Below, piece by piece: positions 11,040 to 64,000 of a stretch of DNA of 64,000 nucleotides. The stretch comes from Mobula hypostoma (Eukaryota), in NCBI RefSeq assembly GCF_963921235.1, contig NC_086097.1:138448001-138512000 (forward strand), given 5' to 3'. The notes below the pieces were generated by a model, which saw only the letters and a list, made by a program, of their open reading frames with translations, made no database searches and was not told the DNA's origin. A program made the position numbers and the translations under genes. How positions within the stretch are numbered: the first letter of the stretch is position 1; each line of letters starts with the position of its first letter.

Positions 11040-11051
11040 CTTAGCATTAAG

Positions 11052-11389: not shown

Positions 11390-11589
11390 TAACACCACTC
11401 CATAATTTGACTCCATATCTGCTCCTCAGCTCTGCTGACTGTCAGGAGGCTTGTGGAATACACCCAGCAAAGTGATCCTTTCCTTTTTTCAACCATAGAC
11501 CCTTCTCAGATATCATTCCTCATTCCTCCTTACTCAATAATGATACGTCACCTTCCGTTTTACATCCTCTCCTTTTGATATTTCTGGAC

Positions 11590-11752: not shown

Positions 11753-11842
11753 ATGGCGGACTACGATCTGACGATGCGAATTGCAAATTTCTTGGATCGC
11801 CACTTGGTTTTCCCGCTGCTCGAGTTCCTGTCGGTCAAAGAG
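11753..11842 (+). CDS. EIF3E: eIF3 subunit E (INT6), coding exon 1
   Basis: [30 protein letters not shown] matches the eIF3e N-terminus. Kozak context AGGATGG; donor AG|GTAAAG, phase 0. Confidence 0.97.
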
Positions 11843-15627: not shown

Positions 15628-16000
15628 TAGTCATAGTCATAAGTCATACTTTATTGATCCCGGGGGAAATTGGTTTTCGTTATAGTTGCACCATAAATAG
15701 TAATAGTAATATTACTATTAGTAACTAGTAATAGTCATGGAAATAATAAATAGTAATAGAATAGTAATAGAAAATAGTAATAAATAGTTAAATAGTAATA
15801 CGTAAATTATGCCAGTAAATTATGAAATAGTCCAGGACCAGCCTATCGGCTCAGGGTGTCCGACCCTCCAAGGGAGGAGCTGTAAAGTTTGATGGCCTCA
15901 GGCAGGAATGACTTCCTATGACGCTCTCTGCTGCATCTCGGAGGAATGAGTCTCTGGCTGACTGTACTCCTGTGTCCACCCAGTACATTATGTAGTGGAT
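15628..16000 (-). mobile_element. Rex1/Babar-like (CTATGA)n-tailed 3' fragment with expanded (AATAGT)n tract
   Basis: Homologous to 9956-10230; microsatellite-like AATAGT repeats at about 15695-15800. Confidence 0.75.
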
Positions 16001-17119
16001 CATAAAGCCTATTCCACCTCCTCTGCCTATGAAAGACTCAGCAGTCCTATCTTGGTGGTGTATTGAGAAACCGTCAAGCTGTATTGCTGCATCCGAAATT
16101 GTGGGGGATAACCAAGATTCCATGAAGCAAAAAACACAACACCTTTTAATGTCCCTCTGGTACAGCAATCTAGCTCTGAAATCTTCATCTTATTTACCAG
16201 ACACAGTCCGTTTGTTTGCCAGCAAGATGGCTTGTATTGGGAGTCGAAAGCTATGCTTAGTTGGACCAACTTTTAGACTAGAGCGGTATCCTTTCTTCCG
16301 CTGTCTTAAGGGGAACAGTGCCAGTCACCGGAGTCCATTCAAGTTTCGTGGACTTTGAGACCTTGGATGTAGTTGTGGTTATCAGTTGTTGCACACTGAA
16401 ACAGGAACATTTGATGGTTTCCATCGGAGCTGTTGGCACAAGTCACCTTCTTGGTGGCACTCCGGGAGTGGAAGGCATCAAGAAGTTGACACCCCCACCC
16501 ACCCAAACCCTGCCAATACTCTGTTTGGCCAGAGTGGGAGAGAATGATTTCAGCACACATGTACCGACACTTCCACACTTCTCCACCCCTTCTTCCTTTG
16601 CATATCTGGTTGGAAGCAATGGTAGACAATGGGACCCCCCCCCACCACTGATGAAACCTCTGCACCTCACTAAACTGTCCACTTCTTCTCCCACCCCAAC
16701 TCTCTCATCACAATGCTCTTTCCACTACATGTTACTGCTAGAAACCTGAGGAGCACAAGCTCTTAATTTCCCCTCCCCGCTCCCAACACTGCCCCTCAGG
16801 AGACAAAGCCCCTTCCCATTCCCCTATACCCTGCCAAAGGTCCTGCTGGAGGCCTAAGATGATTGCAGATTCTCAATGCCTCCCCCACTATCACATTTTC
16901 CCTCCCTACCACCTTATATTCCCACTCATCCGTCCCCTTGTGATCCTTTTTCCCCCACAACAAACAAATGTGCTAGAGGAACTCAGCTGGTCATGTTTTG
17001 GGTCAAAACCTACCATAGATGCTGCATAATCCATTGAGGTCCTCTAGCACATTGTTTGTTGTTCCAAATTCCAGCATCTGCAGTATCTGGAGACCCTCAC
17101 CCCCTCCTTCCCCAATTGC

Positions 17120-17705
17120 ACCAATTTTACAGGAGCATCATTGCATGTCCTGAGCAGCTGCATCACTGTCTGTTATGGGAATTGCAAGGCATCTGGATCA
17201 CAAGACCCCGCAAAGGAATACAAGGGCTGCTGAGAGCATCATTGGGGTCATTCTCTCACTCATCAAAGATACATGTCAGGAGACTGTGTATGCAGGGCTA
17301 TTAGCATTGTCAAGGATCCCTCCCATCTGTCCCACAATCTTTTTGACTCACTACCATTAGTCAGGACGTACTGTACCATTAGGACAAGAACTGTTAAGAT
17401 GGGATATAGCTTCTTCCCTACAGGCTGTGAGACCATTGAACTCCCTGCCACCACCCAGATCTCATCATGTATGAAATGCCAGCGGAGTTATACTATTTAC
17501 TTTTTGACTTGTATAGTAAATACACCTTGTGGTAAATGTCAATATTCAGGAATATATTTCATTATTTGTTAATTTATTTTTGGTAAAGTTACTTTGTTTT
17601 TTTTCTGTGTGGGTTATATGTACTGTGTAGTGCACCTTGGCCAGGAGGAGCATTGTTTCGTTTGCTGTTGTACATGTGTACAGCTGAATGACAATAAACT
17701 GAACT
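17120..17705 (+). mobile_element. Rex1/Babar-like LINE 3' fragment
   Basis: RAISIVKDPSHLSHNLFDSLP...SFFP motif; AATAAAC-TGAACT tail. Confidence 0.7.
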
Positions 17706-18989
17706 CGTGTGCCTCTCCTCCTACCCTCCCCCTCTAGTCATTCCAACCACAAAGGCTGCATCTTCCTATTCCCCACACAAGCCAATCTCTTTCCCCTTAC
17801 ACCCCTCTCAACCCTCCCCCCTGAGTCAAGTTCCACATCCTTAGGTGATTGTGATTTTTAAGGTAGGGGAAAAGATGTTAAAAGATCTGAATCTCTTATC
17901 ACCCTCAAGGCAGCAATGCCCTCACTCCACCCTGGTCCACAGTCCTTTTTTTTTTCAACCAGTACTCCAAAATGAGGTTTCTTCAGGCTCTTGCACATTC
18001 TTGGGGAGATTTGCTTTCACCTTGCATGAAGCCATTTGCAATAAATGTTAATGCTGGTTGCCTCCCAAATTGCTTGCTCTTCATGCATATCATGCAGCTG
18101 CAGATTAATGTGTCCCCATGCCTCAATATTTTCTGTTTTCCATAACAAATTATGACAGACACTAACAAACTGGAATAAAACAAATTATTGGGACTCCGCT
18201 GAAATAAAACTAGAAAATGTTGGGAAACACTCAGGAGGTCAAACTGCATAAGTGGAAAGAGAAACAAAATTAACAATTCTAATGAAGTTGTCTTTGATCT
18301 GAAACATTAAGTCAGTCTGTAGATACTGCATGTCTTGCTGAATATTTCCAGAATTTTCCCAGTTTATTTTACTGGAAATGCTCTGCAAGTTGGACTGCAT
18401 CTATGGAGAGAGAATCAGCATGAACCTTTCAAGTCAATGTTCTGTCATCTTATGGGGAGGAGAAAAACAAGTGGTAAGGGAAGGGCAGATCTGTGAGCTA
18501 GAGATCAGAAGTGATTGAATGACATGGGATTGTACTGGTTACAAGGGGATGGTGGAGGCAAGGGAGGGGCGTATCTGGGGAGATATAAATTGTAGGAAGC
18601 AATTGAAATCAGGTTTTAGCAGGAGGGCTGGCAGGGGTGCAGCTCTTAAGCGACACTGGAAGTGAGATTCAAGATGGGATAGAAATTAGAAAATATTGTC
18701 AATATTCTGGTTGTATAATGTATGCAGAGAGAGTCATTGTTCAAAGTTGATGACCTTTTCTCAGAATTAGGAAAACTTTGAAATCAAATATATTTTCATT
18801 TGCGGACAGAGATGGGATGGCAAACAAATAACATGTCAGTGATTGGTGGTCAAAAGAGACCAAATGATGGTACCATCCTAGAGAGTTTGGTCTTTGAATA
18901 TGATCAATATAGAAGAAATGGAATTAGCAAGTAACTGAAAACAGAGAGACTAGATAAAACTTAAAAAAATCAATGAAAAATGAAAATTG

Positions 18990-21703: not shown

Positions 21704-21821
21704 ATTTACAATGAAAAGGAGCTTCTCCAAGGGAAACTGGACCTACTCAGTGACACAAACATGGTTGACTTCGCTATGGATGTGTACAAAAACTTGTATC
21801 TTGATAAAGAGATTCCTCAAG
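21704..21821 (+). CDS. EIF3E: eIF3 subunit E, coding exon 2
   Basis: TAG acceptor; [39 protein letters not shown] plus 1 nt; donor AG|GTGAGT. 118 nt, in phase with exon 1. Confidence 0.97.
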
Positions 21822-21835: not shown

Positions 21836-22368
21836 TGTAACTTTTGCTTCGGCTAGCAGCTTAATATAGGGGGCGATAGCCCCTGGCCCAGCCAAACTTC
21901 TCATTTGGGTGGATGCTGCGCTGTGTCCCCTGTTACAAATCAGTACCCCGAAATAACAAACAGTACACAATATGTGATTAAATGATTAAGCTTTTTAATT
22001 CTTACTTTGACTATATGGTTAGTAAAGAAATGAAAAAAAAGAGAAAAAAGGGCCCAATCTTGTTAAACAGTCTGTTGCGCAATGTTGGGGCTCACTGATA
22101 AGTCGATCGTCCACCATCGACCTCCGAACGTCGCTGCCCTTTGGACCCTTGCTCCAAGTCCACCCCGTCCGGCGGTCTACCAACTCTCTCCATTCGTGTC
22201 TTCTCTCCTCATCTCTCCCCGGCAAAAGACTGTGAAAATCTCTCTTCCAGCTCACAAGAAAGAACAACAGCACCCCAAACCCCTTTATCTCCAGTCATAA
22301 CCCAAACATTGCTGCTACAGAGATACCTTACAGCATGTTACACAGCAGTGAAATCCTACAGTGTTACA
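21836..22368 (-). mobile_element. Solo LTR (Gypsy), related to LTRs at 39682 and 42935
   Basis: TGTAAC...GTTACA termini; TATA duplicated at 21832-21835 and 22369-22372; 533 bp; reverse-complement similarity to 42935-43467. Confidence 0.88.
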
Positions 22369-26426: not shown

Positions 26427-29400
26427 TCATCCAACTCGGAACCCTGCACCAGCCTTCCCTCCATACCCTCTGATCCCCCTAGCCACAAGGGCCATATCTA
26501 ACTCCCTCTTAAATATAGCCAATGAACTGGCCTCAACTGTTTCCTGTGGCAGAGAATTCCACAGATTCACCACTCTCTGTGTGAAGAAGTTTTTCCTAAT
26601 CTCAGTCCTAAAAGGCTTCCCCTTTATCCTCAAACCATGACCCCTCGTTCTGGACTTCCCTAACATCGGGAACAATCTTCCTGCATCTAGCCTGTCCAAT
26701 CCCTTTAGGATTTTATACGTTTCAATCAGATGCCCCCTCAATCTTCTAAATTCCAACGAGTACAAGCCTAGTTCATCCAGTCTTTCTTCATATGAAAGTC
26801 CTGCCATCCCAGGAATCAATCTGGTGAACCTTCTTTGTACTCCCTCTATGGCAAGGATGTCTTCCCTCAGATTAGGGGACCAAAACTGCACACAATACTC
26901 CAGGTGTGGTCTCACCAAGGCCTTGTACAACTGCAGTAGTACCTCCCTGCTCCTGTACTCGAATCCTCTCGCTATAAATGCCAGCATACCATTCGCCTTT
27001 TTCACCGCCTGCTGTACCTGCATGCCCACTTTCAATGACTGGTGTATAATGACACCCAGGTCTCGTTGCACCTCCCCTTTTCCTAATCGGCCACCATTCA
27101 GATAATAATCTGTTTTCCTATTTTTGCCACCAAAGTGGATAACTTCACATTTATCCACATTAAATTGCATCTGCCATGAATTTGCCCACTTACCCAACCT
27201 ATCCAAGTCACCCTGCATCCTCTTAGTATCCTCCTCACAGCTAACACTGCCGCCGAGCTTCGTGTCATCTGCAAACTTGGCGATGCTGCATTTAATTCCC
27301 TCAATCAAGTCATTAATATATATTGTAAACAACTGGGGTCCCAGCACTGAGCCTTGCGGTACCCCACTAGTCACTGCCTGCCACTCTGAAAAGGTCCCGT
27401 TTATTCCCACTCTTTGCTTCCTGTCTGCTAACCAATTCTCTATCCACATCAATACCTTACCCCCAATACCGTGTGCTTTAAGTTTGCACACTAATCTCCT
27501 GTGTGGGACCTTGTCAATAGCCTTTTGAAAATCCAAATATACCACATCCACTGGTTCTCCCCTATCCACTCTACTAGTTACATCCTCAAAAAATTCTGTG
27601 AGATTCGTCAGACATGATTTTCCTTTCACAAATCCATGCTGACTTTGTCCGATGATTTCACCGCTTTCCAAATGTGCTGTTATCACATCTTTGATAACTG
27701 ACTCCAGCAGTTTCCCCACCACCGACGTTAGGCTAACCGGTCTATAATTCCCCGGTTTCTCTCTCCCTCCTTTTTTAAAAAGTGGGGTTACATTAGCCAC
27801 CCTCCAATCCTCAGGAACTAGTCCAGAATCTAACGAGTTTTGAAAAATTATCACTAATGCATCCACTATTTCTTGGGCTACTTCCTTAAGCACTCTGGGA
27901 TGCAGACCATCTGCCCCTGGGGATTTATCTGCCTTTAATCCCTTCAATTTACCTAACACCACTTCCCTACTAACATGTATTTCACTCAGTTCTTCCATCT
28001 CACTGTCCCCTACTATTTCCGGAAGATTATTTATGTCCTCCTTAGTGAAGACAGAACCAAAGTAGTTATTCAATTGGTCTGCCATGTCCTTGCTCCCCAT
28101 AATCAATTCACCTGTTTCTGTCTGTAGGGGACCTACATTTGTCTTTACCAGTCTTTTCCTTTTTACATATCTATAAAAGCTTTTACAGTCAGTTTTTATG
28201 TTCCCTGCCAGTTTTCTCTCATAATCTTTTTTCCCCTTCCTAATTAAGCCCTTTGTCCTCCTCTGCTGAACTCTGAATTTCTCCCAGTCCTCAGGTGAGC
28301 CACTTTTTCTGGCTAATTTGTATGCTTCTTCTTTGGAATTGATACTATCCCTAATTTCTCTTGTCAGCCACGGGTGCACTACCTTCCTTGATTTATTCTT
28401 TTGCCAAACTGGGATGAACAATTGTTGTAGTTCATCCATGCAATCTTTAAATGCTTGCCATTGCATATCCACCGTCAATCCTTTAAGTGTCATTTGCCAG
28501 TCTATCTTAGCTAATTCACGTCTCATACCTTCAAAGTTACCCCTCTTTAAGTTCAGAACCTTTGTTTCTGAATTAACTATGTCACTCTCCATCTTAATGA
28601 AGAATTCCACCATATTATGGTCACTCTTACCCAAGGGGCCTCTCACGACAAGATTGCTAATTAACCCTTCCTCATTGCTCAAAACCCGGCCTAGAATAGC
28701 CTGCTCTCTAGTTGGCTCCTCGACATGTTGGTTCAAAAAACCATCCCGCATACATTCCAAGAAATCCTCTTCCTCAGCACCTTTACCAATTTGGTTCACC
28801 CAATCTACGTGTAGATTGAAGTCATCCATTATAACTGCTGTTCCTTTATTGCACACATTTCTAATTTCCTGTTTAATACCATCCCCAACCTCACTACTAC
28901 TGTTAGGTGGCCTGTACACAACTCCCACCAGCGTTTTCTGCCCCTTAGTGTTATGCAGCTCTACCCATATCGATTCCACATCTTCCCGGCTTATGTCCTT
29001 CCTTTCTATTGCGTTAATCTCTTCTTTAACCAGCAACGCCACCCCACCTCCCCTTCCTTCATGTCTATCCCTCCTGAATATTGAATATCCCTGAACGTTG
29101 AGCTCCCATCCTTGGTCACCCTGGAGCCATGTCTCTGTGATCCCAACTATATCATAATCATTAATAACAATCTGCACTTTCAATTCATCCACCTTGTTAC
29201 GAATGCTCCTGGCATTGACACACAAAGCCTTCAGGCGCTCTTTTACAACTCTCTTAGCCCTTATACAATTATGTTGAAAAGTGGCCCTTTTTGGTGCTTG
29301 CCCTGGACTTGTTGGCCTGCCACTTTTACTTTTCTCCTTACTACTTTTTGCTTCTACCCTCACTTTACACTCCTCTGTCTCTCTGCACTGGTTCCCATCC

Positions 29401-29459
29401 CCCTGTTGTGAACTAACCTCCTCTCGCCTAGCCTCTTTAATTTGATTCCCACCCCCCAA
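26427..29459 (-). CDS. CR1 ORF2 (APE endonuclease + reverse transcriptase), uninterrupted 1010-aa frame
   Basis: NARSIRNK, GITETW, SDH, NYRPVSLTS, SGVPQGSVLGP, KFADDTKL and HLEYCVQFW. The true start codon is uncertain. Confidence 0.93.
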   Translation of the reverse strand: MGGGNQIKEARREEVSSQQGDGNQCRETEECKVRVEAKSSKEKSKSGRPTSPGQAPKRATFQHNCIRAKRVVKERLKALCVNARSIRNKVDELKVQIVINDYDIVGITETWLQGDQGWELNVQGYSIFRRDRHEGRGGGVALLVKEEINAIERKDISREDVESIWVELHNTKGQKTLVGVVYRPPNSSSEVGDGIKQEIRNVCNKGTAVIMDDFNLHVDWVNQIGKGAEEEDFLECMRDGFLNQHVEEPTREQAILGRVLSNEEGLISNLVVRGPLGKSDHNMVEFFIKMESDIVNSETKVLNLKRGNFEGMRRELAKIDWQMTLKGLTVDMQWQAFKDCMDELQQLFIPVWQKNKSRKVVHPWLTREIRDSINSKEEAYKLARKSGSPEDWEKFRVQQRRTKGLIRKGKKDYERKLAGNIKTDCKSFYRYVKRKRLVKTNVGPLQTETGELIMGSKDMADQLNNYFGSVFTKEDINNLPEIVGDSEMEELSEIHVSREVVLGKLKGLKADKSPGADGLHPRVLKEVAQEIVDALVIIFQNSLDSGLVPEDWRVANVTPLFKKGGREKPGNYRPVSLTSVVGKLLESVIKDVITAHLESGEIIGQSQHGFVKGKSCLTNLTEFFEDVTSRVDRGEPVDVVYLDFQKAIDKVPHRRLVCKLKAHGIGGKVLMWIENWLADRKQRVGINGTFSEWQAVTSGVPQGSVLGPQLFTIYINDLIEGIKCSIAKFADDTKLGGSVSCEEDTKRMQGDLDRLGKWANSWQMQFNVDKCEVIHFGGKNRKTDYYLNGGRLGKGEVQRDLGVIIHQSLKVGMQVQQAVKKANGMLAFIARGFEYRSREVLLQLYKALVRPHLEYCVQFWSPNLREDILAIEGVQRRFTRLIPGMAGLSYEERLDELGLYSLEFRRLRGHLIETYKILKGLDRLDAGRLFPMLGKSRTRGHGLRIKGKPFRTEIRKNFFTQRVVNLWNSLPQETVEASSLAIFKRELDMALVARGIRGYGGKAGAGFRVG

Positions 29460-29464
29460 CTATT

Positions 29465-30190
29465 CTAGTTTAAAGTCACCTCAGTAGCCCTTGCTAATCT
29501 CCCTGCCAGGATATTGGTCCCCCTAGGATTCAAGTGTAACCCGTCCTTTTTGTACAGGTCACGCCTGCGCCAAAAGAGGTCCCAATGATCCAAAAACTTG
29601 AATCCCTGCCTCCTGCTCCAATCCCTCAGCCACACATTTATCCTCCACCTCATCGCATTCCTACTCTCACTGTCGCGTGGCACAGGCAGTAATCCCGAGA
29701 TTACTACCTTTGCGGTCCTTTTTCTCAACTCCCTTCCTAGCTCCCTATATTCTCCTTTCAGGACCTCTTCCCTTTTCCTACCTATGTCATTGGTACCTAT
29801 ATGTACCACGATCTCTGGCTCCTCACCCTTCCACTTCAGGATATCTTGGACATGATCAGAGATACCCTGGACCCTGGCACCACGGAGGCAAACTACCATC
29901 TGGGTCTCTGGACTGTGTCCACAGAATCGCCTATCTGACCCCCTTACTATTGAGTCCCCTATCACAACTGCCCTCCTCTTCCTTTTACCCTTCTGAGCTA
30001 CAGGGCCGGACTCTGTGCCGGAGGCACGGCCACTGTCGCTTCCCCCGGGTAAGCTGTCCCCCCCAACAGTACTCAAACAGGAGTACCTATTGTTAAGGGG
30101 CACAGCCACCGGGGTACTCTCTATTACCTGACTCTTCCCCTTCCCCCTCCTAACCGTGACCCACTTGTCTGCCTCCCGTGGCCCCTTGGC
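29465..30190 (-). CDS. CR1 ORF1 C-terminal SGNH/GDSL esterase domain (5'-truncated)
   Basis: VVIGDSIVRG, HIGTNDIG and DGLHLN blocks. Confidence 0.88.
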   Translation of the reverse strand, partial: AKGPREADKWVTVRRGKGKSQVIESTPVAVPLNNRYSCLSTVGGDSLPGGSDSGRASGTESGPVAQKGKRKRRAVVIGDSIVRGSDRRFCGHSPETQMVVCLRGARVQGISDHVQDILKWKGEEPEIVVHIGTNDIGRKREEVLKGEYRELGRELRKRTAKVVISGLLPVPRDSESRNAMRWRINVWLRDWSRRQGFKFLDHWDLFWRRRDLYKKDGLHLNPRGTNILAGRLARATEVTLN

Positions 30191-30943
30191 ACTGCCATCG
30201 TACCCTCTAATCATCAAGCTTCAAAACCTGGGCCTCTGTACCTCCCTGCGCAACTGAATCATTGACGACTTCATCAATAACATCTCCTCTTCGCTGATAA
30301 TCATCACTGGCACACCTCAAGGATGCATGCTTAGCCCACTGCTCTATTCTCTCTACACCCATGACAGTGTGGCTAGGCACAGCTCAAACACCATCTATAA
30401 ACTTACTGATGGTACAATTGTTGTTGGCAGAATCTCAGATGTTGACTAGAAGACATACAGGAGTGATAACGATCAGCTGTTTGAGAGGTGTCAGAACAAC
30501 AACCTTGCACTCAATGTCAATTGATTGTGGGCTTCAGGAAGTAGAAGTCGAACAAACACACAGCAGTCCTCATTGAGGGACCAGATGTGGAAAAAGTGAG
30601 CGGTTCCTAGCTGTTAACATCTCTGAAGATCTATCCTGGGCCAAGCATATTGATGCAATTACAAAGAAGGCATGACAGCAGCTATATTTCTTTAGGGGTT
30701 TGGGGAGATTTGGTATGTTACCAAAGACTCTAGCAAATTTCTCAGATGAACCGTGGAGAGCATTCTAACTGGCTGCTTTACTGCCTGGTACGGAGGGGCC
30801 ACTGCGCAGGATCAGAAAAAACTGCGGAGTGTTGCACACTCAGCCAGCTCCATCATGGACACTATCCTTCCCAACATCAAGATCAAGCCTAAAGAGGCGG
30901 CATCCATCATTAAGGACCTCCAACACCCAGGACATCCCTCTTA

Positions 30944-32585: not shown

Positions 32586-35500
32586 TGTGGTGGCTCGCCC
32601 ACGCGGCAAGTGAACCGGCTCCAGTAGTCGCGGGCGAGTCCACAGCCAGCAGCAACCGAGAGGGCTCTGAGTGTGGGGCAGACCTCGGCCCGGAAGCCGA
32701 CATCACTTCCGCCCCGCAAAGAGCAGGGGATGCTGGGAGCGGGCACTTAAGCGGGCAGGGATTTAAACAGTAAACAGTTCAACCAGACCTTGCTTGACTC
32801 AGTGTGTTGCTTTCACTCATTGCATATCAGCGCAACTACATTGGTGACCCCGATGGTCCAACGGCATTTGGACCCAGCATGAACAATTCGGCTCTGCAGA
32901 ATGCAGTTTCCCTTAAACTGCCAACCTTCTGGACCACTCAACCCCTGGTCTGGTTCGAGCAAGCAGAGACCCAGTTCCAGGTCAGGCAAATTGTCTCAGA
33001 CATCACCAGGTATTACTACGTGGTGACCGCCCTCGACCAGGAGACAGCGGGCCGCGTTATTGACTTTCTGTATCAGCCTCCAGCAACAGACAGGTACGAG
33101 GCACTCAAGGCCCTGTTAATCCGCACATTTGGCCGCGAACGGGCCACGCGGTTACTGCATATGGGCGGCCTGGGTGACTGTGCGCCATCGGTCCTGATGA
33201 GTGACATGCTAGCACTGGCAGACGGCCATAAGCCTTGCCTGCTTTTTGAACAGATCTTCTTGGAGCAAATGCCAGAAGACATCTGCCTCCTGCTAGCAGA
33301 TGAAGACTTCAGAGACCTGTGCAGGGTGGCTGCCCGAGGGGATGTGCTTTGGCGCGCCAAACAAAATGGCAGAACCACCATCGAAATTAGTGCTGTGGCA
33401 CAGCCGAAAGCCCAGCCCTCCCGCATCCCAGCAGCAGAGCACATAACATCCACACCAAAGGACAGCACCACTTCTGAGTCTTAGTGTATTTATCATCAAA
33501 CCCGCCGCTGCCGACTGCCATGCTCGTTCCAGGTAAACGCCAGGACCAGCCGTCGCTGATGGCTATGGTGGCTGGTCACCGTGATAGCCTCCTCTACGTT
33601 TGGGACAAGCACTCCGGGTGTAGATTCCTGGTGGACATGGGGGGCGGAAGTCAGTGTCCTACCCCGCTCGAGCCACAATACCGGAACTAGAAGAACAGGA
33701 CCGGAACTTACGGCAGCCAACAGCAGCACCATCCGCACCTACGGCACAAGAACCATCCCCTTGCAGTTCGGTTCCAGCTGCTTTACATGGACATTTACGC
33801 TGGCCGCAGTATCACAGCCATTGCTAGGTGCAGACTTCCTCTTCGCGCACTGCCTGCTCGTGGATTTGAAGGGACGATGATTGGTCGATGCGAGGACATT
33901 TCAGACTTTCTCCCTCGGTGAGGCCAGGTTACCGGCCCCGCATCTGGACTCCGTCACTTATTCCGACAACGAGTTCGCCAGAGTGTTATCGGAGTTCCCA
34001 TCTATCATCACACTGCAGTTTTCCTCAGCAGACCCCAAGCACGGCGTGATGCACCACATCCCCACACAGGGACCTCCCCTTCATGCCCAGGCCCGCAGGC
34101 TACCACCCGACAAGCTCCGCCTCGCGAAAGAGGAATTCAAGAAGATGGAGGAGATGGGGATTGTGCGGTGTTCTGACAGCCCTTGGGCCTCTCCACTCCA
34201 TATGGTGCCCAAGTCCGCGGAAGGGTGGAGACCGTGCGGCGACTATAGGAGGCTGAACGACGCCACTATGTCCGATCGCTATCTGGTACCACACATCCAG
34301 GACTTTATGGCCAACCTGCACGGGGTGCGCAACTTTTTGAAGATTGTCCTGGTTCGAGGGTATCATCAGATCCCAGCCCATCCGGACGATGTACCCAAGA
34401 CGGCCCTCATTACCCCCTTTGGCCTGTTCGAGTTCCTCAGGATGCCGTTCGGGCTCAAAAACACGGCGCAGACGTTCCAGCGCCTGATGGATGCAGTAGG
34501 GCGAGATCTGGACTTCCTGTTCATCTACCTGGATGACATACTTATCGCCAGCCGCTCCCGCCAGGAACATCTAGCACATCTACGCCTGCTCTGCCGCCGC
34601 CTATGTGGCTACGGCCTAGCTATCAGCCCCGCCAAGTGCCAGTTTGGCCTACCCGCCACTGACTTCTTGGGACACCGGATTGACCGCCATGGAGCTGTGC
34701 CTCTGCCAGCAAAAGTTGAAGCCGTCCGCCAATTTGCCAGTCTGTTAAAGGCCTGCAGGAATTTGTTGGGATGGTTAACTTTTATCACCGTTTCCTGCCC
34801 TCAGCGGCCCGGATCATGCGGTCCCTTTCCGGCTTGATATCTGGCAAGGTCAAAGAGGTCACCTGGACAGAGGAGGCGATGGTGGCTTTTGAACAAACCA
34901 AGAACATACTAGCAAACGCCACGCTCCTGGTCCACCCCCGGGTCAACGTCCCCACTGCCCTCACTGTGGATGCCTCCGACGAAGCAGTTGGTGGCATGCT
35001 TGGGGAGCTCATCGAAGGCCAGTGGAAGCCGCTCGCTTTTTTCAGCTGGCACCTACGACCCCAGGAACTTAAGTACAGCGCTTTCAACAGGGAGCTGCTG
35101 GCCCTGTACCTTGCCATCTGGCACTTCAGGTATTTCCTGGAGGCAAGGGGGTTTACGGTCTTCACAGACCACAAGCCCCTCACTTTCGCGTTTGCCAAAG
35201 TGTCAGACCTGTGGTCGGGCCGCCAGCGACGCCACCTGTTGTACATCTCAGAGTTTACCACCACGATCAAGCACATCTTCGGGAAGAACAAAGTGGTGGC
35301 CGACGCGCTGTCACACACCTCTGTCCAATCAGTGCACTCTCTGTCTCCGGGGGTGGATTATGCGGCGTTAGCTAAGGCACAATGACTGGACGGTGAGATG
35401 CTGGCGTACCAAACCGCAGTCTCAGGACTCTGCCTCGAAGACATACCCATTGGGCCTGAAGGTAATGAGCCCTTTTGTGATGTGTCCACCGGGCAACCTC

Positions 35501-36758
35501 GGCCCAATGTCCTGACCGCTTGGAGGTGCAGCGTTTTCGACGCCTTGCATGGTTTAGCCCACCCTTCCATCCGGGCGACCACCTGGCTGATTGCAGACAG
35601 GTTTGTGTGGCACGGCCTGCGCAAGCAGGTTGGGCACTGGGCCAGGACATGCACGCACTGTCAAACCTCCAAAATCCAGAGGCATGTGAGGGCCCCACTG
35701 CAACCCTTCCAGCCGACACATAGAAGGTTTGAACATGTCCATGTGGACATCGTCGGCCCACTGCTGGTTTCGAGAGGAGCGAGATACATGTTCACCATGG
35801 TGGACTGGTTCACGAGGTGGCCGGAATATATCTCACTCGCTGACATGGCCACGGAGATGTGCGCCAGAGCCCGGATTACCACCTGGGTGGCAGTCCAACG
35901 GCCTGGTGGAACGTTTCCACAGGCACTTGAAGTCAGCCCTGATGGCACGCCTCTGAGGGCCAGACTGGGTGGATGAACTCCCCTGGGTGCTGCTTGGTAT
36001 CCACACGGCACCCAAGGAGGACCTGGCCGCATCATCGGCCGAACTGGTTTACGGTGCCCCGCTCACAGTTCCCGGTGAGTTTGTGCCAGCACCCCATGGC
36101 CAGGAGGACACACCTACGGCAGTCCTAACTAAACTCCAGGAGCGGCTTGGAACACTTGCCCCAGTCCCGACGTCCCATCACGGAACAACACCCTCTTTCG
36201 TGCCCAAGGACCTATAACAGAGCAAGAATGTTTTCGTTCGCCGAGGCGTGCACAGACCACCCCTGCAGCAACCATACGAAGGGCCCTACAAGGTGGTGCG
36301 CTATAATGGGACGACCTGAGTTCTCGACATCGGCAGTCGTGAAGAGACTTATACCGTTGACCATCTCAAACTGTCGCATCTAGACCTTGAACACCCGGTT
36401 GTGGTGCTACCCCCATGACGACGAGGCCGACCACCTAAAAGAACTGACAGTGTGCAGGCTGTGGACTCTGCACCTCCTAGCGCCGGTTCTGGGGGTTGGG
36501 TCATGTGGCGGCTCGCCCATGCGGCAACTGAACTGGCTCCACTAGTCGTGGGCGAGTCCACAGCCAGTGGCAACCGAGAGGGCTCTGAGTGCGGGGCAGA
36601 CCTCAGCCCAGAAGCTGATGTCACTTCCGCCCCACAAAGAGCGGGGGATGCTGAGAGCGGGCACTTAAGTGCACGCAGATTTAAACAGTAAACAGTTCAA
36701 CCAGACACTGCTCGGCTCTGTGTGTTGCTTTCACTCGTTGCGTATCAGCGCGACTACA
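32586..36758 (+). mobile_element. Ty3/Gypsy LTR retrotransposon (CsRn1/Kabuki-like), near-complete but frameshifted
   Basis: 255-bp LTRs at 32586-32840 and 36504-36758 (TG...CA); TSD ATAG; PBS TGGTGACCCCGA (32842-32853, complementary to tRNA-Trp). Gag VSLKLPTFW, protease LLGADFL, RT YLDD, RNase H TDHKPL/ADALS, integrase HHCC zinc finger and VHVDIVGP. Confidence 0.95.
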
Positions 36759-37009
36759 ATAGTCTTATTATAATTTTTAATGTATTGCATTGTACTGCTG
36801 CCGCAAAACAACAAATTTCATAGCACATGGCAGTGATATTAAATCTGGTTCTGAATCTGCTAAAAGCCGCCTTCACCGTTCTATCTTCCCATAGTGCAGC
36901 ATTTGCTCTTATTTGAATTAAACTCCATTTGCCATTCCTGGGCCCACTTACCCAGCTGATCAAGATCCAATTTACTGTCTACGATGCCACATATTTTAAT
37001 GTCTCTCTT

Positions 37010-37984: not shown

Positions 37985-38705
37985 GGTTCAAAGGTCCAGT
38001 ATAATGTCAGAGAAATGAAAACAGAGGTGCCCGAAAGAATGAATGACAGATAAACGTAAGAGCCCCAAAGTCCTCCCCCCAGTTCCCCTCCTTCCCATGC
38101 GTAAGCGGCAGCGAGCAACACTTCCCCTCCCCCCACTGGCAAAATAGAAGCAAGCATCGGTACCACCACCGAACACTCAGCGTGAGCAAAGCAACAGACT
38201 TGCAGTTACCCCAAAGATTTGGCTTTTCATCCATCATTTGACATACCGCAAATTCTCTCTCTCTCTCTCTCTCACTAATAAGGGAGAAGGAGGTATCTCT
38301 GTTTTTTCCCCAGTGAGCGGGGAGACATAACAAACAACTTGCTGATTTATGATGTTAAAAGTCTGTTATGTCACTTCTTTCGAGCTCTGTGCCTGGAGAT
38401 TGCAAAGATCTCAGATCTTTGGGCCCACAGCAGATATCCCGACTCCCCGGATGACACACAGGTCTCCTGCCGTGACACCGACCTTCGATCCGCCCGTCTC
38501 CAGAGCCCTGAGATCTTAGGCTTCCAAATTCGAGCCGGACTCTCAGACCAAACCCTTGGCATGCTGAGCAATGGCCAGTTATGGAACCCTGAGAACGGGT
38601 CCCATTCCTGCAAAGGACTGAAGTCAGCGTGTAACTCCAGGTTAGGGTCTTCAAAAGAACCCTGAAAGGGAAAAATAAAGATATTAAATATGGAAACTGA
38701 GCTGT
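37985..38705 (-). repeat. Unclassified interspersed repeat (LINE-tail-like short tandem end)
   Basis: TTCAAAGG tandem at the left end; partial match to 5860-5946. Confidence 0.5.
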
Positions 38706-39554
38706 TTCTATTTTAACTTCATCAGTCCACAGGACCTGTTTCCAAAATGCATCAGGCTTGTCTAGGTGTTCCTTTGAACCTTTTGAATAGAACTTTTTGT
38801 CCGCAATGAGCAAAGGTATGTTTGGAGAAAAAAGGGTGCAGAATTTCAGGAAAAGAACCCGTCTCCAACTGTTAAGCACGGGGGTGGATCGATCACGCTT
38901 TGGGTTTGTGTTGCAGCCAGTGGCACGGGGAACATTTACTGGTAGAGGAGAGAATGAATTCAATTAAATACCAGCAAATTCTGGAAGCAAACATCACACC
39001 GTCTGTAAAAAAGCCGAAGATGAAAAGAGGATGGCTTCTATAACAGGATAATGAACCTAAACACACCTCAAAATCCACAATGAACTACCTCAAGAGACGC
39101 ACGCTGAAGGTTTTGCCATGGCCCTCACAGTCCCCTGACCTAAACTTCATTGAGAATCTGTGGACAGACCTCAAAAGAGCAGTGTATGCAAGACGGCCCA
39201 AGAATCTCAGAATTAGAAGCCTTTTGCAAGGAAGAATGGGTGAAAATCCCCCAAACAAGAATTGAAAGACTGTTAGCTGGCTACAGAAAGTGTTTACAAG
39301 CTGTGATACTTACCAAAGGGGGTGTTACTAAGTACTGACCATGCAGGGTGCCCAAACTTTTGCTTGGGGCCCTTTTCCGTTTTTGTTATTTTGAAACTGT
39401 AAAAGATGGAAATAAAGTTTACTTGCTTAAAATATTAAAGAAATGTGTCGTCTTTAACTTTATGCCTTTTGGAAATCATTTCATCTTTTACTCGCTTAGC
39501 TATTCACAGTAACAGAAATTTTGACGGGGGTGCCCAAATTTTCGCATGCCACTG
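38706..39554 (+). mobile_element. Tc1 transposon right half with a short internal inversion
   Basis: KHGGGS, QDNEPKH and [15 protein letters not shown]; right TIR ...TTTCGCATGCCACTG|TA; same family as 62658-63645. Confidence 0.88.
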
Positions 39555-40052
39555 TATGCCTTGTACTGTGTATTACTGTTGGTACTGTGTTTTGCACCTT
39601 AGCCCTAGAATAACGCTGTTTTGTTTGGCGGTGTTCATATATGGTTGAGTGACAATTATCTCAAACTTGAGTCCATGTATGTGTAGCGTACTGTAAGGTT
39701 TCACTGCCAATGTAATGGCCTCTCTGTAAGGTTTCACTGCTAATGTAATGGTTTCTTTGTAGCAGCAATGTTTGGGTTATGACTAGAGATAACGGGGTTT
39801 GGAATGCTGCTGTTGTTTCTTGTGAGTCTGGAAGAGAGATTTTCGCGGTCTTTGGTCGGGGAGAGGAGAAGAAGGAAGACGCATGTGAAGAGAGCTGGTA
39901 GATCACCGGATGGAGTGGACCGGGAGCGAGGGTCTGAAGGTTGGCGACACTCGGAGGAGGTCGATGGTTGATGAATGGCCATATTTGTGAGCTCCAAAGT
40001 GCACTTTCGACTTTTCTGTTAAAATGGGCCCTTTTTTCTTTTTATTTTCTTT

Positions 40053-40561
40053 CATCATCATCAGGTGCCATGCCCAGTTTGAGCTTTGACTGCAATGGCC
40101 CACACACTCCTGTTTCGGGTCAAGTGGATCAATTCATCAATTTCCAGTTCTCTGGCTGTTGTCTCCATCGTCATTTACCTTTATCTTCCTCTTGCTTTCT
40201 TCCCTTCAATCTTTCCCATAATTACCGTGCATTCTAACTCCTCTTTCCTAATCACGTCCAATGAAGTTACGTTGCCTTTTCATGATCTCATAGATTATTT
40301 CTCTTTTTGTGCTTGCTCTGTTCATGACATCCTCGTTAGAGATTCATTTTGTCCATGATATTCTTTGCATCCTCCTCAAAAACCACAACTCTGCTGCTAC
40401 AGTTCGTTTCCTCATGTTACTAGATATTGTCCAACATTCCGAGCCATATAACATAACTGGATAAATGTAACATTTCAGTACTCTGAGGCGGGTTGTTATA
40501 CCTAGTTTAGTATTGGTCAGAATACTCTTCATTCTCGTGAAGGCGTCTTTTGCCATCCCTA
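40053..40561 (-). mobile_element. RTE-clade LINE 3' fragment in the 5' LTR
   Basis: MAKDAF...VMLYGSECW...AELWFLRRMQRISW; (TGA)n tail; 11-bp TSD TTATTTTCTTT (40042-40052 and 40562-40572). Confidence 0.88.
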
Positions 40562-41955
40562 TTATTTTCTTTACTAACCCTATATTTAGATTAAGATGTA
40601 TAAAGTTCAATAAGTTAATTGCATATGGTGTACTGTCTGATATTTTGCAGTGCGCATTTGTAACAGAGCAACACATCACGCAGCATTCACACAAACGCGA
40701 CTTCTCAGATTGGCGGGGCCAGAAGTTGTCTTCCCCTAGACGAACACGTGCTGGCCGAGCCTGAGGGTTACAATTGTGGGGCTCGTCTGGGATTGATTCC
40801 GTTGGATGCTGTGTGATTGCCCTGAGCATTGAAATAGTGGGCTGTGTGTTTAAATCTGTGCTGGTATGGCTGTTGCTGGGGTGGAGCAGTGGTGCGCCTC
40901 CGTGGGGTTACCAGTAACTAATGCGTGCATGTTGAATGGAGTGGATATTCGTACCCTAGATGAATTGTTAATTCGATTTTTGTGTACAATTAAAGCTATT
41001 GGCAAAGTTGAGATCGTAGTGTGGCATTTTGATAAAATGGCAGGTTCAGACCTTGTTTTTGTTCAGACTAGCAATGACTTAACGGTAGTGGGACTGCCAG
41101 CGTCTTTCGGTGCCCGGGTGAGGCGGGGCCATGGCCTATCCATACTGTCAGGGAGGAGGAGAACGTAGCGGAGCGGGCTGAGTCACAAGTTGAGTTTCCC
41201 GTAGCAGGGTGGCGGTCAAAAAAGGAGACGGGGCTCAGGCGGAGAAGACGAAACATGCGTCGGTGCCTCCATTACTGCGAGAGTGGCCTCAGTTGGAGTT
41301 GAAGAACCAGATCTTATACCAGGTCGTGCCACCCCCAGACCAACCCCGACGTTGCCAGCTGGTTCTGCTGGAGAAGTATCGGAGGATTGTGTTGAAGTCA
41401 CTTCATGATGATTCTGGGCATTTGGGGGCGGAAAAGACCTATGGATTGCTCAGAGACCTGGCATACTGGCCCCGAATGAACTCAGAGATTAAAGAATACT
41501 GCAAGTTGTGCATTCGATGCATACGGCGGAAGACACTGCCTACGCAGGCAGCTCCCTTGTCCCACTTGCAGAGTGCGGGGCCTCTGGACCTGGTGTGTAT
41601 GGATTTCTTGGCAATAGAACCTGAAGCCAGCAACACGGCGAATGTCTTAGTCATCACGGACCACTACACCAGATAAGCTCAGGCTTTTCCTACCAAGGAC
41701 TAGAGGGTGTCTACAGTGGCTAAAGTGTTATGGGAGAAGTATTTTGTTTATTATGGCCTCCCCAGGCGAATAACTAGCGATCAGGGACGGGATTTCGAGA
41801 GCAGACTCATCCATGAGTTACTGGGCCAGCTTGGAGTCGAGAAGTCGAGGACCACGCCCTATCACCCGCAGGGTGATCCCCAGCCAGAGAGGTTTAATCG
41901 GACCTTGCTAGACATGCTCGGGACCCTGGAGATCAGCAAGAAGAGCAAGTGGAGT

Positions 41956-42717
41956 CCGCATAAGCAAATTACCATGTCATTACAATCTGAGATACGCGAA
42001 AGCGTTAATAAATCTGAGAGTCAGACAATTTAGGAATCCCTATACAGAGTTCACAGCATCCAGTCGTGTGCATCCCGACGGTGCCCGTGCCCAACCCCCG
42101 CCCCCCGCATATAGACATCATAACACACCAGCGACCCACGAATGACCAATAGAGTGGCGTCGGCCAGCTCAGTCCGAGATAGTCCATATGATGTCAACGC
42201 AGAAGACGAGCGAGGAAACCTAAGTCCATGGTAACCAATGACAACTGGCTCGTACCTCACCGTCGAGATGTCCCAACCAATGTTGACCAAAAAGTCTTTG
42301 ATGGCCCGCTGAACAGAGGGCTCGTCGTACTTCTGTCGTTTGGACACTCAGGTGTCCGACAGCCGTTCTTTCATCGGGACTGCTATATCCATAATCACTG
42401 CAGCTGGACCAGATCGAATAACAAGATCTGGCTTGCAGAACGTCCCGGCTGTCGGTATCCTGGGCTCCTCGAGCACCTCACGTCCTCTTTTCCAAATACG
42501 TTTTGCAATGAAACGGGCAACCCGATTGTGCCTCGCTCAACGTGCGAGATGAGTCACAGTACACGCTTGCAGCACATGACGTAAAGATTTGGGTGCTCCA
42601 CACAGTCCACGGCAGGCAGTGTCCATGCTCCCTGGACGTCCACGACAGCGTCTAACTTTAGTCCCAAAGGTGCTGGATCTTAGCTGAATACCCCAGATGA
42701 ACAATGGGTGAAACACC
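41956..42717 (-). mobile_element. R2 non-LTR retrotransposon 3' fragment (zinc knuckle + restriction-like endonuclease + 3' UTR)
   Basis: Manual translation of one minus frame from 42692: GIQLRSSTFGTKVRRCRGR...CRGLCGAPKSLRHVLQACTVTHLAR*ARHNRVAR...EEPRIPTAGTFCKPDLVIR...MDIAV...*VSKRQKY...IRGSLVCYDVYMRG. Confidence 0.85.
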
Positions 42718-44084
42718 CAGTAGTATCCGAACCTGAAGAGTTGGATGAGGGGGTACAGAGGTCTCAGAGAATTAGGCTGGCCTACATAGCACCAGGGGAA
42801 CAGGGCGTGACCCTTGCTGTTCTGGGGAGCTATGTCACTGCCTTTTACACCTGGGTTGGACTTTGTGTTTTGCAGGAAGGCTTGGCGAATTATCTCAATG
42901 TCATGAGGACATGACTAAATTTGTGGGGGGAGAGAGTAGCTTGCTGTAAGATTTCACTGCAAATGTAATGGTTTCTCTGTAGCATCAATGTTTGGGTTAT
43001 GACAAGAGATAATGGGGTCTGGAATGCTGTTGTTGTTTCTTGTGAGTCTGGAAGAGAGATTTTCGCGGCCTTTGGTCGGCGGGAGGAGAAGAAAGAAGAC
43101 GTGTGGAGAGAGCTGGTAGATCACTGGACGGAGTGGACCGGGCGTGAGGGTCTGAAGGTCGGCGACACTCGGAGGAGGTCGATGGTCGATGAATGGCCAT
43201 ATTTGTGAGCTCCAAAGTGCACTTTTGACTTTTCTCTTAAAATGGGCCCTTTTTTAAAATTTTCTTTACTATCCCTATATTCAGATTAAGATTTGTAAAG
43301 TTCAGTTAGTTAATTGCATATGGTGTACTGTCCGGTACTTTGTGGTTCGGATTTGTAACCGGGCAACACATCACGCAGCATCCACACAAACGAGATTTCT
43401 CAGATTGGCGGGGCCAGAAGTTGTCTTCCCCTAGACGAACATGTGCTGCCCGAGCCTGAGGGTTACATATATAATAACCATGTTTCCATGTCAAAAAAAG
43501 ACAGATGCTTAAATTTTGAAATAAAATCTTAGAGCAGAAAGTACTTGAAAGCATTCGGCATGTTCCTTAGAGTTAGAAACTTGGAGTTAACGTTTCTTCT
43601 CAAAGATACTTTACTACTACATGTTAATGTAAACATTTCGGCTTGAAGATGCATTCTAAAAAGTGCCTGACCTGAAAATTATTTTTGTCATCTGCACAGA
43701 AGTAGCCTGACTTGGTGAGTGTTCTTAGATTAGATTGTTTTTGTGACTGTTTTAATTAAACTTATGAAAAAATGTTTGTTGGGTTTTAACTACCCTTTGC
43801 TGGTCAGTTATCAGTTCCCAAAAATGATTCCATTTCACTTGAACCCCAACACTGGAGAGATGTTTGACCTTTTTGCAGCTTCACTGACACAGTGATCCAG
43901 AGCACAAGCTCACTGCTGTTTTCTCCATTTCACAGGACTCATGGGGGAGATTTGATCATTTTATGTTTGCATTCTTTGTTGGAAGTTGACAATCTGGTAT
44001 GATTTACAGTATGAACGTTGTTGGTGTGTGGTGGGCGAACATTTGCCAGTCTGCATTTTGGGATCAGCAGCTGTAATTTCTGGA

Positions 44085-44670: not shown

Positions 44671-45894
44671 TGTTCTGTTGCTTAACTGCTTGAAATCTCT
44701 AGGAATGCACATTGGCCTTTTTACAGTCAAGTCTGCTGAGCAATGACTTATAAGATTTGAGTTTCTGATTTCCAACATGCTTTAGTGTTTAATACTCATT
44801 ATTACTCTCGCTTCAGGATTTCAAGTCTTAAAAGTTTTCAACATGAAGTGTTTGATGGTAAATGCAGTGAAATCAGTGCCAGACACCTTAGCAAAGTTCA
44901 CCATCTAAATGCTCTTAAGTGTTTCTTTACTTATTTCAGAACCAAATAGAAAAATACTGAGTAATTTTTGCTGTGCACTTAGAGGCTGCAAGCAATTTTA
45001 AGCATGATTGATCTCACACTTAACAGCACTTGATTAAGCAATCATGGGAGGCCAGTAGTATTTCAGTATTGCAAGCAGCAGTGAGAAGAAGCAGGATCTG
45101 CATTAATCTTCCACATTGTGGTATGTCAGTTTCTGAAACACACGGAATGATGATATGTATGTAATGTGAACATAAAGCCGGTTTTATTTTTAAAATGAAT
45201 GCTTGCAGAAAAATCCTTTGAGGGAGAAATGCCTTTTATTTAGCTGTATCACAATATTATTCCATACTGAAAACCACAGGAGAAAAGGGTACACTCATTC
45301 TTATTCATCTTTACCAACTTCACAATGTCCCAAGTACTTTACAGAGAGCAAAATAACTTTGAAATTTCAATTTTGGTGTGATTGATTCTCAGTAGCGTCT
45401 GGGTAAACTTTAGGCCAGTTGTCAGATATAAGTCCTGTGTATCCAAAATGGTAACAGAATTGTGTTTTTTTTCCAAAATGAAAAGCTGCAGAAGAAAAAC
45501 TGAAAATACTGGAAGCACTCGGGAGGTCTGGCAGCATCTGTGGAAAGTGAAACAGAATTAATATTTCAGGGTCTTTGTCAGAGTCTGCTGAAGGGTCTTT
45601 GACATGAAGCATTAACTGTTTCTCTTTTTGCAGATGCTACTGGTTGAGGGTTTTCATTATTTATAACAGACCTGTTTTTCTTGAGGAAATGGTCCTGACA
45701 ACACAGGGCAAGCCTGAGTGTTGAGAGAACACTTAGTCTTCAAAGTTATTGTTTTCCCATGCCTCACTTAATAAAGGTGTGAATGTAATGTTTCAAATCT
45801 AAGACAAGTTAGTTGTCATAAGTTAGAGGATTTTATTTTTATCAAAGTTCGTCTCTGACCATTTGGGTAAAGGAAGACCTCTTTGTATTTTTAG

Positions 45895-46012
45895 CTCTGA
45901 GGGAAAAGCGTACAACTGTGGTTGCACAACTGAAACAACTCCAGTCAGAAACGGAACCAATTGTGAAGATGTTTGAGGACCCAGAAACTACAAGGCAAAT
46001 GCAGCCCACCAG
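45895..46012 (+). CDS. EIF3E: eIF3 subunit E, coding exon 3
   Basis: TTTTTAG acceptor; (A)[38 protein letters not shown](R); donor AG|GTATGC. 118 nt, phase matches exon 2. Confidence 0.97.
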
Positions 46013-62657: not shown

Positions 62658-63645
62658 TAGTGGCATGCAAAAGTTTGGGCACCTGTGGTCAAAATTTCTG
62701 TTACTGTGAATAGTTAAGTGAGTAGAATATGAACTGATCTCCAAAAGTCATAAAGTTAAAGATGAAACATTCTTTTCAACATTGTAAGCAAGATTAGTGC
62801 ATTATTTTTGTTTTGTACAATTTTAGAGTGAAAGAAAGGAAAGGGGCACCCCAAGAGATTTGAGCTCTCAGGTAACTTTTACCAAGGTCTCAAGACCTTA
62901 ATTAGCTTGTTAGGGCTATGGCTTGTTCACAGTCATCGTTAGGAAAGGCCAGGTGATGCAAATTTTAGAGCTTTATAAATACCCTGACTCCTCAAACAAT
63001 CAGCAGCCATGGGCTCCTCTAAGCAGCTGCCTAGCACTCTGAAAATTAAAATAAATGATGCCCACAAAGCAGGAGAAGGCTATAAGAAGATAACAAAGCG
63101 TTTTCAGGTAGCCGTTTCCTCAGTTCGTAATGTAATTAAGAAATGGCAGTTAACAGGAATGGTGGAGGTCAAGTTGAGGTCTGGAAGACCAGGAAAACTT
63201 TCCGAGAGAACTGCTGGTAGGGTTGCTAGAAGGGCAAATCAAAACCCCCGTTTGACTGCAAAAGACCTTCAGGAAGATTTAGCAGACTCTGGAGTGGTTC
63301 TCAGACACTGTTCTACTGTGCAGCGACACCTGCACAAATATGATCTTCATAGAAGTGTCATCAGAAGAAAACCTTTCCTGCGTCCTCACCACAAAATTCA
63401 GCATCAGAAATTAGCAAAGGAACATCTAAATAAGCCTGATGCATTTTGGAAACAAGTAGTGTGGACTGATGAAGTTAAAATAGAACTTTCTGGCTGCAAT
63501 GAGCAAAGGTATGTTTGGAGAAAAAAGGGTGCAGTATTTCATGAAAAGAACACCTCTCCAACTGTTAAGCATGGGGGTGGGTCGATCATGCTTTGGGCTT
63601 GTGTTGCAGCCAGTGGCACGGGGAACATTTCACTGGTAGAGGGAG
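62658..63645 (+). mobile_element. Tc1 transposon left part with open transposase N-terminus (63009 onward)
   Basis: TIR AGTGGCATGCAAAAGTTTGGGCACC. ORF contains GYKKI...SGRP...WTDEVKIE...KHGGGSIMLW and is cut off after GNISLVEG by an L1-like sequence. Confidence 0.9.
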
Positions 63646-64000
63646 AGCCCTGCTGGCCGCTGATGGGGTAACATCTTTTTGAACTTGCTCCTACCTTATC
63701 TATCTTTTTGTTTCCTACCAGTTTTTTGAAACCTTATTATAAATCTCAATATTGCTCTGTTATGTCTTTGAGAAAGACTAAAGCCTCTGGAAAAGAAAAA
63801 GATGATGATTCTCCAACCACTTTGGAATCAATTGGAGATTTCCTTAAAAAGCAAAGAACAGAACTTTCTGAGGAATTTAACCATCTTAAAGTCCAGTTGG
63901 ATACTATTCAACAAACTCTAATCGAACATGATAAGCGAATTAAGGAGAATTAATAAACTTTGTCGATACTGGAAGTGGACTTAGAAGACATGAGTAAGGT
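63646..64000 (+). mobile_element. L1-like 5' region / ORF1 coiled-coil start (ATG 63762), runs off the window
   Basis: MSLRKTKASGKEK...LSEEFNHLKVQLDTIQQTLIEHDKRIKEN* is a basic N-terminus plus heptad pattern typical of L1 ORF1p. Confidence 0.55.

Follow-up and report, generated by a model that had tools for sequence, protein, structure and literature searches.

An old R2 retrotransposon relic in place of the integrase tail of a Gypsy element within an EIF3E intron of Mobula hypostoma

The window analysed here, a stretch of 64,000 nucleotides from the Mobula hypostoma genome, carries exons of EIF3E on its + strand, and intron 2 of this gene houses a Gypsy element of about 3.8 kb (39682-43467, + strand). 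Inside the Gypsy element lies a piece of an R2 retrotransposon. The features on which the following account is based are listed below, with the type of evidence in brackets.

21704..21820, + strand: EIF3E exon upstream of the host intron, the second coding exon found (Pfam eIF3_N, E 9.1e-11, model positions 27-65)
39682..40772, + strand: Gypsy 5' LTR (TG...CA), interrupted by a LINE piece (sequence)
40775..40792, + strand: primer-binding-site-like sequence after the 5' LTR, which we take to be of the tRNA-Pro type (sequence)
40866..41205, + strand: gag N-terminal remnant, about 110 codons, with one frameshift near 41112 (tblastn to Hypanus and fish Gypsy proteins)
41212..41956, + strand: integrase zinc-binding and core domains with two stops, ending at the R2 insert (Pfam Integrase_H2C2, E 1.6e-18; rve, E 3.5e-6)
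41957..42714, - strand: R2 fragment of 758 nt, lineage D, C type (translation, PDB, protein representatives, junctions of Gypsy copies)
41957..42053, - strand: R2 stop codon plus residual 3' UTR-like sequence, 97 nt, possibly 3'-truncated (sequence)
42054..42719, - strand: R2 coding remnant with CCHC knuckle, RHNRV, KPD, second Asp, KRQKY and YDVYMRG (translation and PDB alignment)
42715..42719, no strand: right junction (5' side of R2), about 2-5 bases fitting both R2 and Gypsy (alignment starts)
42715..42934, + strand: last pol codons and polypurine tract (tblastn, sequence)
42935..43467, + strand: Gypsy 3' LTR (sequence)
45894..46010, + strand: EIF3E exon that follows the host intron (Pfam eIF3_N, E 2.2e-6, model positions 67-102)

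The two LTRs of the Gypsy element differed at 43 of 524 aligned bases (8.2%, K2P 0.088), and the 4-base flanks of the element agreed at 3 of 4 positions. A tblastn comparison with Gypsy proteins confirmed the earlier description of a deleted provirus: the gag N-terminus is fused to the integrase region, and what is missing is the remainder of gag together with the whole of PR-RT-RH. The integrase that remains is closest, among named sequences, to those of Mobula birostris (79%) and Hypanus sabinus (77%). When compared to three ray proteins, it was found to lack 276-289 codons after the core domain, that is ~830-870 nt, and the 758-nt R2 piece fills this gap. A further 509-nt LINE piece (40053-40561, - strand) is present in the 5' LTR only, has a short trinucleotide tail and is flanked by an 11-bp target duplication (40042-40052 and 40562-40572); it gave no Pfam match and, from its motifs, is presumably RTE-like. 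This LINE piece is a later insertion, and the Gypsy element as a whole is a nest of later damage. The R2 insert runs antisense to both the Gypsy LTR transcript and EIF3E, as had been proposed, with EIF3E exons on the + strand at both sides and R2 on the - strand.

The window holds other mobile sequences. Just past the upstream EIF3E exon there is a solo LTR (21867-22361, - strand, ~73% identical) that belongs to the same Gypsy family and is older, and a second Gypsy-type element (32586-36763, + strand) has 260-nt LTRs with 87% likeness and fragmented frames for RT, RNase H and integrase. A LINE at 26427-30220 (- strand), with an open second frame of 1010 codons and a first frame of 251 codons, looks young; we take it to be of the CR1 type and its first frame to be esterase-like. 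A 504-codon frame at 1635-3149 (- strand) combines an RT with a GIY-YIG domain, presumably as in Penelope-like elements, and two related transposase remnants (~38700-39560 and 62988-63671, + strand) are, we assume, Tc1-like.

Translation of the minus strand from 42719 to 42051 gave one frame containing CRGLC (at 42614), HVLQAC, RHNRV, the endonuclease motif KPDLV (at 42434) with a second Asp 13 residues further, KRQKY and GSLVCYDVYMRG. In-frame stops were found at 42539 and 42350, no frameshift was detected, and the frame closes with a terminal stop at 42053-42051. The fragment is therefore 5'-truncated just upstream of the zinc knuckle and runs across the endonuclease into the 3' UTR. These motifs and positions, from CRGLC to the C-terminus in a single minus frame, are the same as those in the original prediction, which had also placed the two stops correctly and had noticed about 100 nt of UTR-like sequence beyond the ORF (97 nt with the stop codon included). 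Folding of this UTR-like sequence was no better than that of shuffled versions (z -0.11).

A PDB search with this frame, in which the stops were replaced by X, returned the R2-type protein 8gh6 as best match (E 1.8e-14, residues 15-198), and all five matches obtained were R2-type. In the 8gh6 alignment the knuckle and both Asp residues were matched, the piece having a CCHC knuckle and, after it, a PD-(D)xK-type restriction-like endonuclease. Chain 8ibw shows an Ala opposite the KPD Asp of the window, which we take to be an engineered catalytic mutant. Pfam has no model for R2 pieces. Among 1.84 billion representative proteins, 1499 matched the frame at E<=0.001 and 33 at E<=1e-30; these 33 proteins, together with the E value for 8gh6, indicate that the match is not due to chance. 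Twenty of the protein matches were looked up, and all those bearing an element name were called R2, none of them being named NeSL, R4, Utopia or HERO. The piece belongs to the R2 clade, as predicted, an assignment against other RLE clades that is based on nearest neighbours, the named rows of the tree including no non-R2 outgroup.

The closest sequence to the R2 piece was XP_072139172.1 (P0023) from Mobula birostris (59% over 115 residues). This model, annotated as an 'uncharacterized protein', is a frameshifted, decayed R2 relic extending from RT to endonuclease on a 70.7-Mb M. birostris sequence, and it is a candidate for a second R2 stray in rays. A tree was built with 52 rows taken from 155 matches: the 40 best-scoring ones that cover at least 150 aa, 10 more distant ones, the R2 piece of the window and, from the Mobula relic, the part that is in frame. 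In this tree the two ray sequences were sisters (100/99), and the 39-row clade to which they belong (98/89), whose internal order the tree does not resolve, also comprises rows from Clonorchis, Schistosoma, tapeworm and Oryzias, at ~36-45% identity. Horizontal transfer from flatworms is not claimed, as the tree joins the ray pair to no flatworm group. By eye, against Fig. S12 of PMC13188248, the window piece shows lineage D motifs (an RVFP-like entry, RHNRV, F.KPDL and GSL..YD.YMRG) and none of the lineage A motifs. Motifs and tree support its assignment to lineage D, C type, where it groups with flatworm, fish and ray C-type R2 elements, apart from lineage A.

The N-terminal zinc finger(s), Myb, RT and 5' ribozyme are missing from the window piece through the 5' truncation. 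Its full-length relatives P0002, P0010 and P0017 carry C2H2 fingers or Myb plus RT: the best full-length match, P0010, has Myb and RT, and P0002 has, by eye, a two-finger N-terminus and linker motifs as in R2-1_MBi. Another of the matches, P0008 (CAK1599224.1, Parnassius mnemosyne), is a 2328-aa model in which an R2 segment with thumb, knuckle and endonuclease recurs six times almost unchanged; the gene predictor has probably fused truncated R2 copies from tandem rDNA units. Two-finger, C-type R2 elements have been described in manta ray, stingray and zebra shark (R2-1_MBi, R2-1_HBer and R2-2_STig), each with 28S sequence on both sides (PMC13188248). Since C-type R2 elements with 28S flanks are thus already known in sharks and rays, the parent of the window piece was most likely a normal 28S-targeting C-type element. 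The suggestion that this host harbours an R2 lineage was right, but the lineage is not a new one, having been published for sharks and rays (PMC13188248).

The limits of the insert were given by other copies of the Gypsy element. On the left, contigs of these copies depart from the window after 41956, as seen from loose ends in 3 of 4 runs, and on the right they rejoin it at ~42715. The replacement of the integrase C-terminus had been placed between 41955 and about 42718; the replacement stands, its edges being shifted to 41956 (one base to the right) and ~42715. The first bases of the insert resemble the next integrase codons, and a misplaced left junction was rejected because the other Gypsy copies leave at 41956. 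An assembly artefact was likewise rejected, as a contig from run X2 bridges the right junction with 0 differences and a contig from a second organism bridges both. At the right junction, alignments of R2 relatives start most commonly at 42716 (24 of 155), with 5 of 155 starting at 42719, and the Gypsy protein aligns from 42717. The resulting overlap of ~2-5 bases may represent microhomology.

R2 normally inserts only in ribosomal RNA genes. Neither a target site duplication (TSD) nor a poly(A) was seen in the sequence at the R2 insert. With up to 2 mismatches allowed, the 28S 3' target motif occurred 2 times across the window, where 6.5 occurrences would be expected by chance, and in neither case at a junction; Rfam found no rRNA piece in the 64-kb window. 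The best likeness to the 28S target was 12/19 and 9/12, off the junctions. Sequence, motif scan and Rfam all agree with what had been noted for the 3' junction, namely no TSD, poly(A) or 28S target. With no 28S motif at the junctions and no rRNA in the window, the piece is an R2-derived relic and not a canonical R2 insertion. At its 3' side, 97 nt follow the end of the ORF, or ~145 nt if counted from the conserved YxxYMRG at which several relatives stop. Three published C-type R2 elements have 221, 174 and 172 nt after the ORF, values worked out by hand from entry lengths tabulated in PMC13188248, so that a few tens of bases may be missing from the 3' end of the window piece.

Copy number was judged from contigs of 4 of 24 public runs, at a likeness of at least 80%; it should be considered that contig depth is not equal to copy number and that X2 may be the window's own sample. 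The contigs listed comprise 32 of 36,366 pieces, 24 of 3,397 loose ends and 15 of 333 joints. In the six bins covering only R2, depth ranged from 6.1 to 23.8 in X2 (organism A) and from 5.5 to 25.2 in X6 (organism B), while integrase bins reached 10,459-18,584 and unique flank 2.2-9.3. The contrast between the R2 part and the integrase is of about three orders of magnitude, and the chimera is single-copy because the depth of the R2 part is near that of the unique flank and far below that of the integrase. At 42558-42581, X2 had one contig only (depth 6.1, 0 differences), the one that bridges the right junction. This junction was represented in organism A, among the contigs listed, by one contig at least 80% alike, at single-copy depth. 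In organism B, a contig of 850 nt (41926-42775, 24 differences, depth 5) bridges both junctions with 31 and 61 letters outside, and another, over the boundary between 3' LTR and flank, shows 5 differences in 461 letters, with 30 letters on the LTR side, one below the bridging rule. These results indicated that the R2-Gypsy chimera is a single-copy sequence common to two species labels, most simply an orthologous locus, and the insertion event is old because the second species label carries both junctions.

These data bear on the idea that a chimeric, non-autonomous LTR family carrying R2 multiplied in the genome. In its favour, copies of the Gypsy family are very numerous and the present one is devoid of PR-RT-RH; against it, the R2 part is at single-copy depth in all three DNA-type runs used, and among the contigs listed there was one per junction per organism and no sister copy of the chimera with the same junctions. 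Nor did any contig listed bridge the gag-integrase deletion. Capture followed by LTR amplification, as put forward in the original prediction, predicts several copies with identical junctions, and the single right-junction contig listed for organism A, at single-copy depth, speaks against it. This reading is largely refuted and we consider it very improbable.

A few extra low-depth, diverged contigs matched parts of the R2 piece. Run X11 (organism D), the one run used of organisms C-I, whose shares are small, had one contig of depth 35 over ~42513-42612, with at least 10 differences from the window; the flank was almost uncovered in the same run and no contig listed lay over either junction, and the depth-35 contig may come from a relative of the parent R2 that is multi-copy and perhaps located in rDNA. 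Run X5 (presumed RNA) covered 3 of the 6 R2-only bins at a depth below 7, with no piece there among those listed.

The low-depth contigs are among the observations that would suit a ray C-type R2 family with relaxed target choice, similar to R2NS-1_CSi, which would have left a few scattered fossils, the window piece among them. Such a family would also account for the second decayed relative, XP_072139172.1, as sister of the window piece, and Clonorchis R2 proteins, found on several large contigs, are among the top matches, R2NS-1_CSi itself being a non-specific R2C family (PMC5035012). Nevertheless, depth over the R2 part does not go beyond roughly four times that of single-copy sequence, with just the one X2 contig at 42558-42581, the published shark and ray two-finger R2 elements all have 28S on both sides (PMC13188248), and the Clonorchis rows and the window piece are not joined in the tree. 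Such a depth does not support a large non-rDNA R2 family; a non-rDNA R2 lineage had been raised as one origin of the fragment. We regard a relaxed-target ray family as improbable, yet less so than an amplified chimera.

The R2 piece and the integrase carry an equal load of stops, 2 in ~205 codons and 2 in ~248, respectively. CpG loss per LTR was 24% (range 11-44%), which did not separate the ages and is compatible with an R2 piece of the same age as the LTRs. Between organisms A and B, the R2-spanning contig differed at 24 of 850 letters, when compared to 5 of 461 for the unique-flank contig, and since the former rate exceeds that of the unique flank there is no sign of constraint on the R2 piece. 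We infer that the piece is dead and has decayed neutrally. This bears on the idea that the piece was kept as a putative source of antisense silencing RNA directed at rDNA-resident R2, transcribed from the LTR or in EIF3E pre-mRNA. Its antisense orientation to both, and its fixation in two species labels, would be in keeping with such a role, against which stand the A-B differences just given and the normal degradation of intron RNA. We found no sign of function for the R2 piece and hold its retention for silencing to be very unlikely.

How the R2 piece came to replace the integrase tail can be read in two further ways. In one, the Gypsy reverse transcriptase would have jumped to an RNA antisense through the 3' end of R2 and back, and the chimeric cDNA would have been integrated once, with help in trans, and left unamplified. 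Consistent with this, the insert took the place of an ORF segment instead of simply interrupting the ORF, and one of its junctions has a short overlap, as in the cases of PMC5131818; moreover, both LTRs are present, and the equal stop load and compatible CpG decay of R2 piece and Gypsy fit a common date. However, an antisense R2 RNA must then have been co-packaged, and the orientation counts against capture because, as we infer from the model in PMC5131818, switching onto R2's own RNA gives the sense orientation. A random 758-nt piece of a 3.4-kb element was computed to end within the last 130 nt ~5% of the time, so that the 3'-anchored position would be a coincidence of that order, and no sister copy was found among the contigs listed. 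This reading is possible but unlikely, though it is the strongest of the alternatives.

We favour, with somewhat better than even confidence, a single insertion event in which a Gypsy copy already in place lost target sequence, either through repair of a break or through priming off target. The 3' part of an RNA or cDNA from a 28S-targeting C-type R2 would have entered, one time only, the Gypsy copy that EIF3E intron 2 by then contained, in an ancestor shared by two or more ray-like species. The R2 piece could have patched a double-strand break that had been resected, as in non-classical LINE insertions that do not depend on the endonuclease; alternatively, off-target target-primed reverse transcription could have been 5'-truncated at an early stage, with target DNA being lost on the 5' side. 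Either way, ~830-870 nt of integrase tail would have been lost with 758 nt of R2 left in place, and the piece would then have decayed neutrally, acquiring its two stops, with no further copying. Both the route and the order, Gypsy first, are our reconstruction. A 3'-anchored event is favoured because the position of the piece would arise by chance only ~5% of the time. A one-off insertion also agrees with the 5' truncation, the end in or near the 3' UTR, the target deletion and the short overlap at the 5' junction; the absence of TSD and poly(A), a site unlike the nuclease target and the deletion of target are the features of non-classical L1 insertions, and all of them occur here. The same Gypsy element, besides, took the later LINE insertion in its 5' LTR. 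On the other hand, captures by LTR template switching likewise leave internal ORF sequence replaced, with short overlaps (PMC5131818), and equal stop loads and CpG decay leave the events unordered. Set against the three mechanisms initially proposed, a one-off insertion with target loss fits best.

We conclude that the R2 piece is the product of a real, old, single accident, neither an amplified hybrid nor a demonstrated new lineage. Turnover of the rDNA erases old R2 copies. A fixed intronic relic preserves the tail of an old C-type ray R2 and places this lineage in ray germline DNA. The germline location is useful because the N-termini of stingray R2-1_HBer and killifish R2-1_CTe are identical in Fig. 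S5 of PMC13188248 and its authors consider that one of them may be a contaminant. The relic is, furthermore, a natural vertebrate case of R2 sequence outside 28S and bears on R2 specificity, the tightness of which is called open by the R2 engineering field (PMC13580325), though one decayed copy does not settle the matter. If a relaxed-target ray R2 did exist, it would be a vertebrate R2 lineage leaking from rDNA, and its fossils would form a natural record of off-target landings. We found no report of an R2 piece inside a vertebrate LTR element, a weak negative because the search was made without most subscription papers and Repbase.

The known systems resemble the locus in different respects. 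R2-1_MBi, R2-1_HBer and R2-2_STig, as well as the lineage D vertebrate R2p LaMa, NePa and CroHe, show the same order of knuckle and RLE and the lineage D motifs, but they are full-length with 28S on both sides, whereas the window piece is 758 nt long, decayed and intronic (PMC13188248). Non-specific R2 or R2-like families are described in planarian, fluke, sponges and cockroach (PMC5035012 and PMC7650587, among other sources). One of them, R2NS-1_CSi from Clonorchis, falls in the same broad R2C group, Clonorchis R2 proteins being 43% identical to the window piece; it is a dispersed family with near-identical copies, and no such family was seen among the contigs matching the window (PMC5035012). 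In LTR template-switch captures, 15 of 15 Drosophila cases had internal ORF sequence replaced with short overlaps (PMC5131818). Hallmarks of such captures are microsimilarity at both switch points and a cargo usually in sense to the LTR transcript. The locus shares with the Drosophila cases the foreign sequence that replaces an internal ORF between two LTRs and the short junction overlap, but its cargo is another retroelement, antisense, 3'-anchored and unamplified. Among 21 human non-classical L1 insertions, 18 had target deletions, of between 5 bp and 14.5 kb, a TSD or poly(A) was present in none, and most derived from the element's downstream half (PMC1920257). The window insert resembles these in having no TSD or poly(A), a non-target-like site, a target deletion, a piece from the 3' half and an intronic location, which is frequent among them; the element is L1 there and R2 here, and the 3' truncation of the latter is only suspected. 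Closest in kind are the incomplete extra-rDNA R2 copies of five Drosophila species, and junctions of 5'-truncated R2 elements have 1-5 nt of microhomology and upstream deletions (PMC2718515). Those Drosophila copies are likewise incomplete, diverged, located outside 28S and incapable of yielding active elements; they are 1-2% diverged, whereas the window piece is older, present in two species labels, from a vertebrate and nested in an LTR element. The R2 piece of Mobula hypostoma is thus an extra-rDNA R2 relic, of a kind already in print for Drosophila (PMC2718515).
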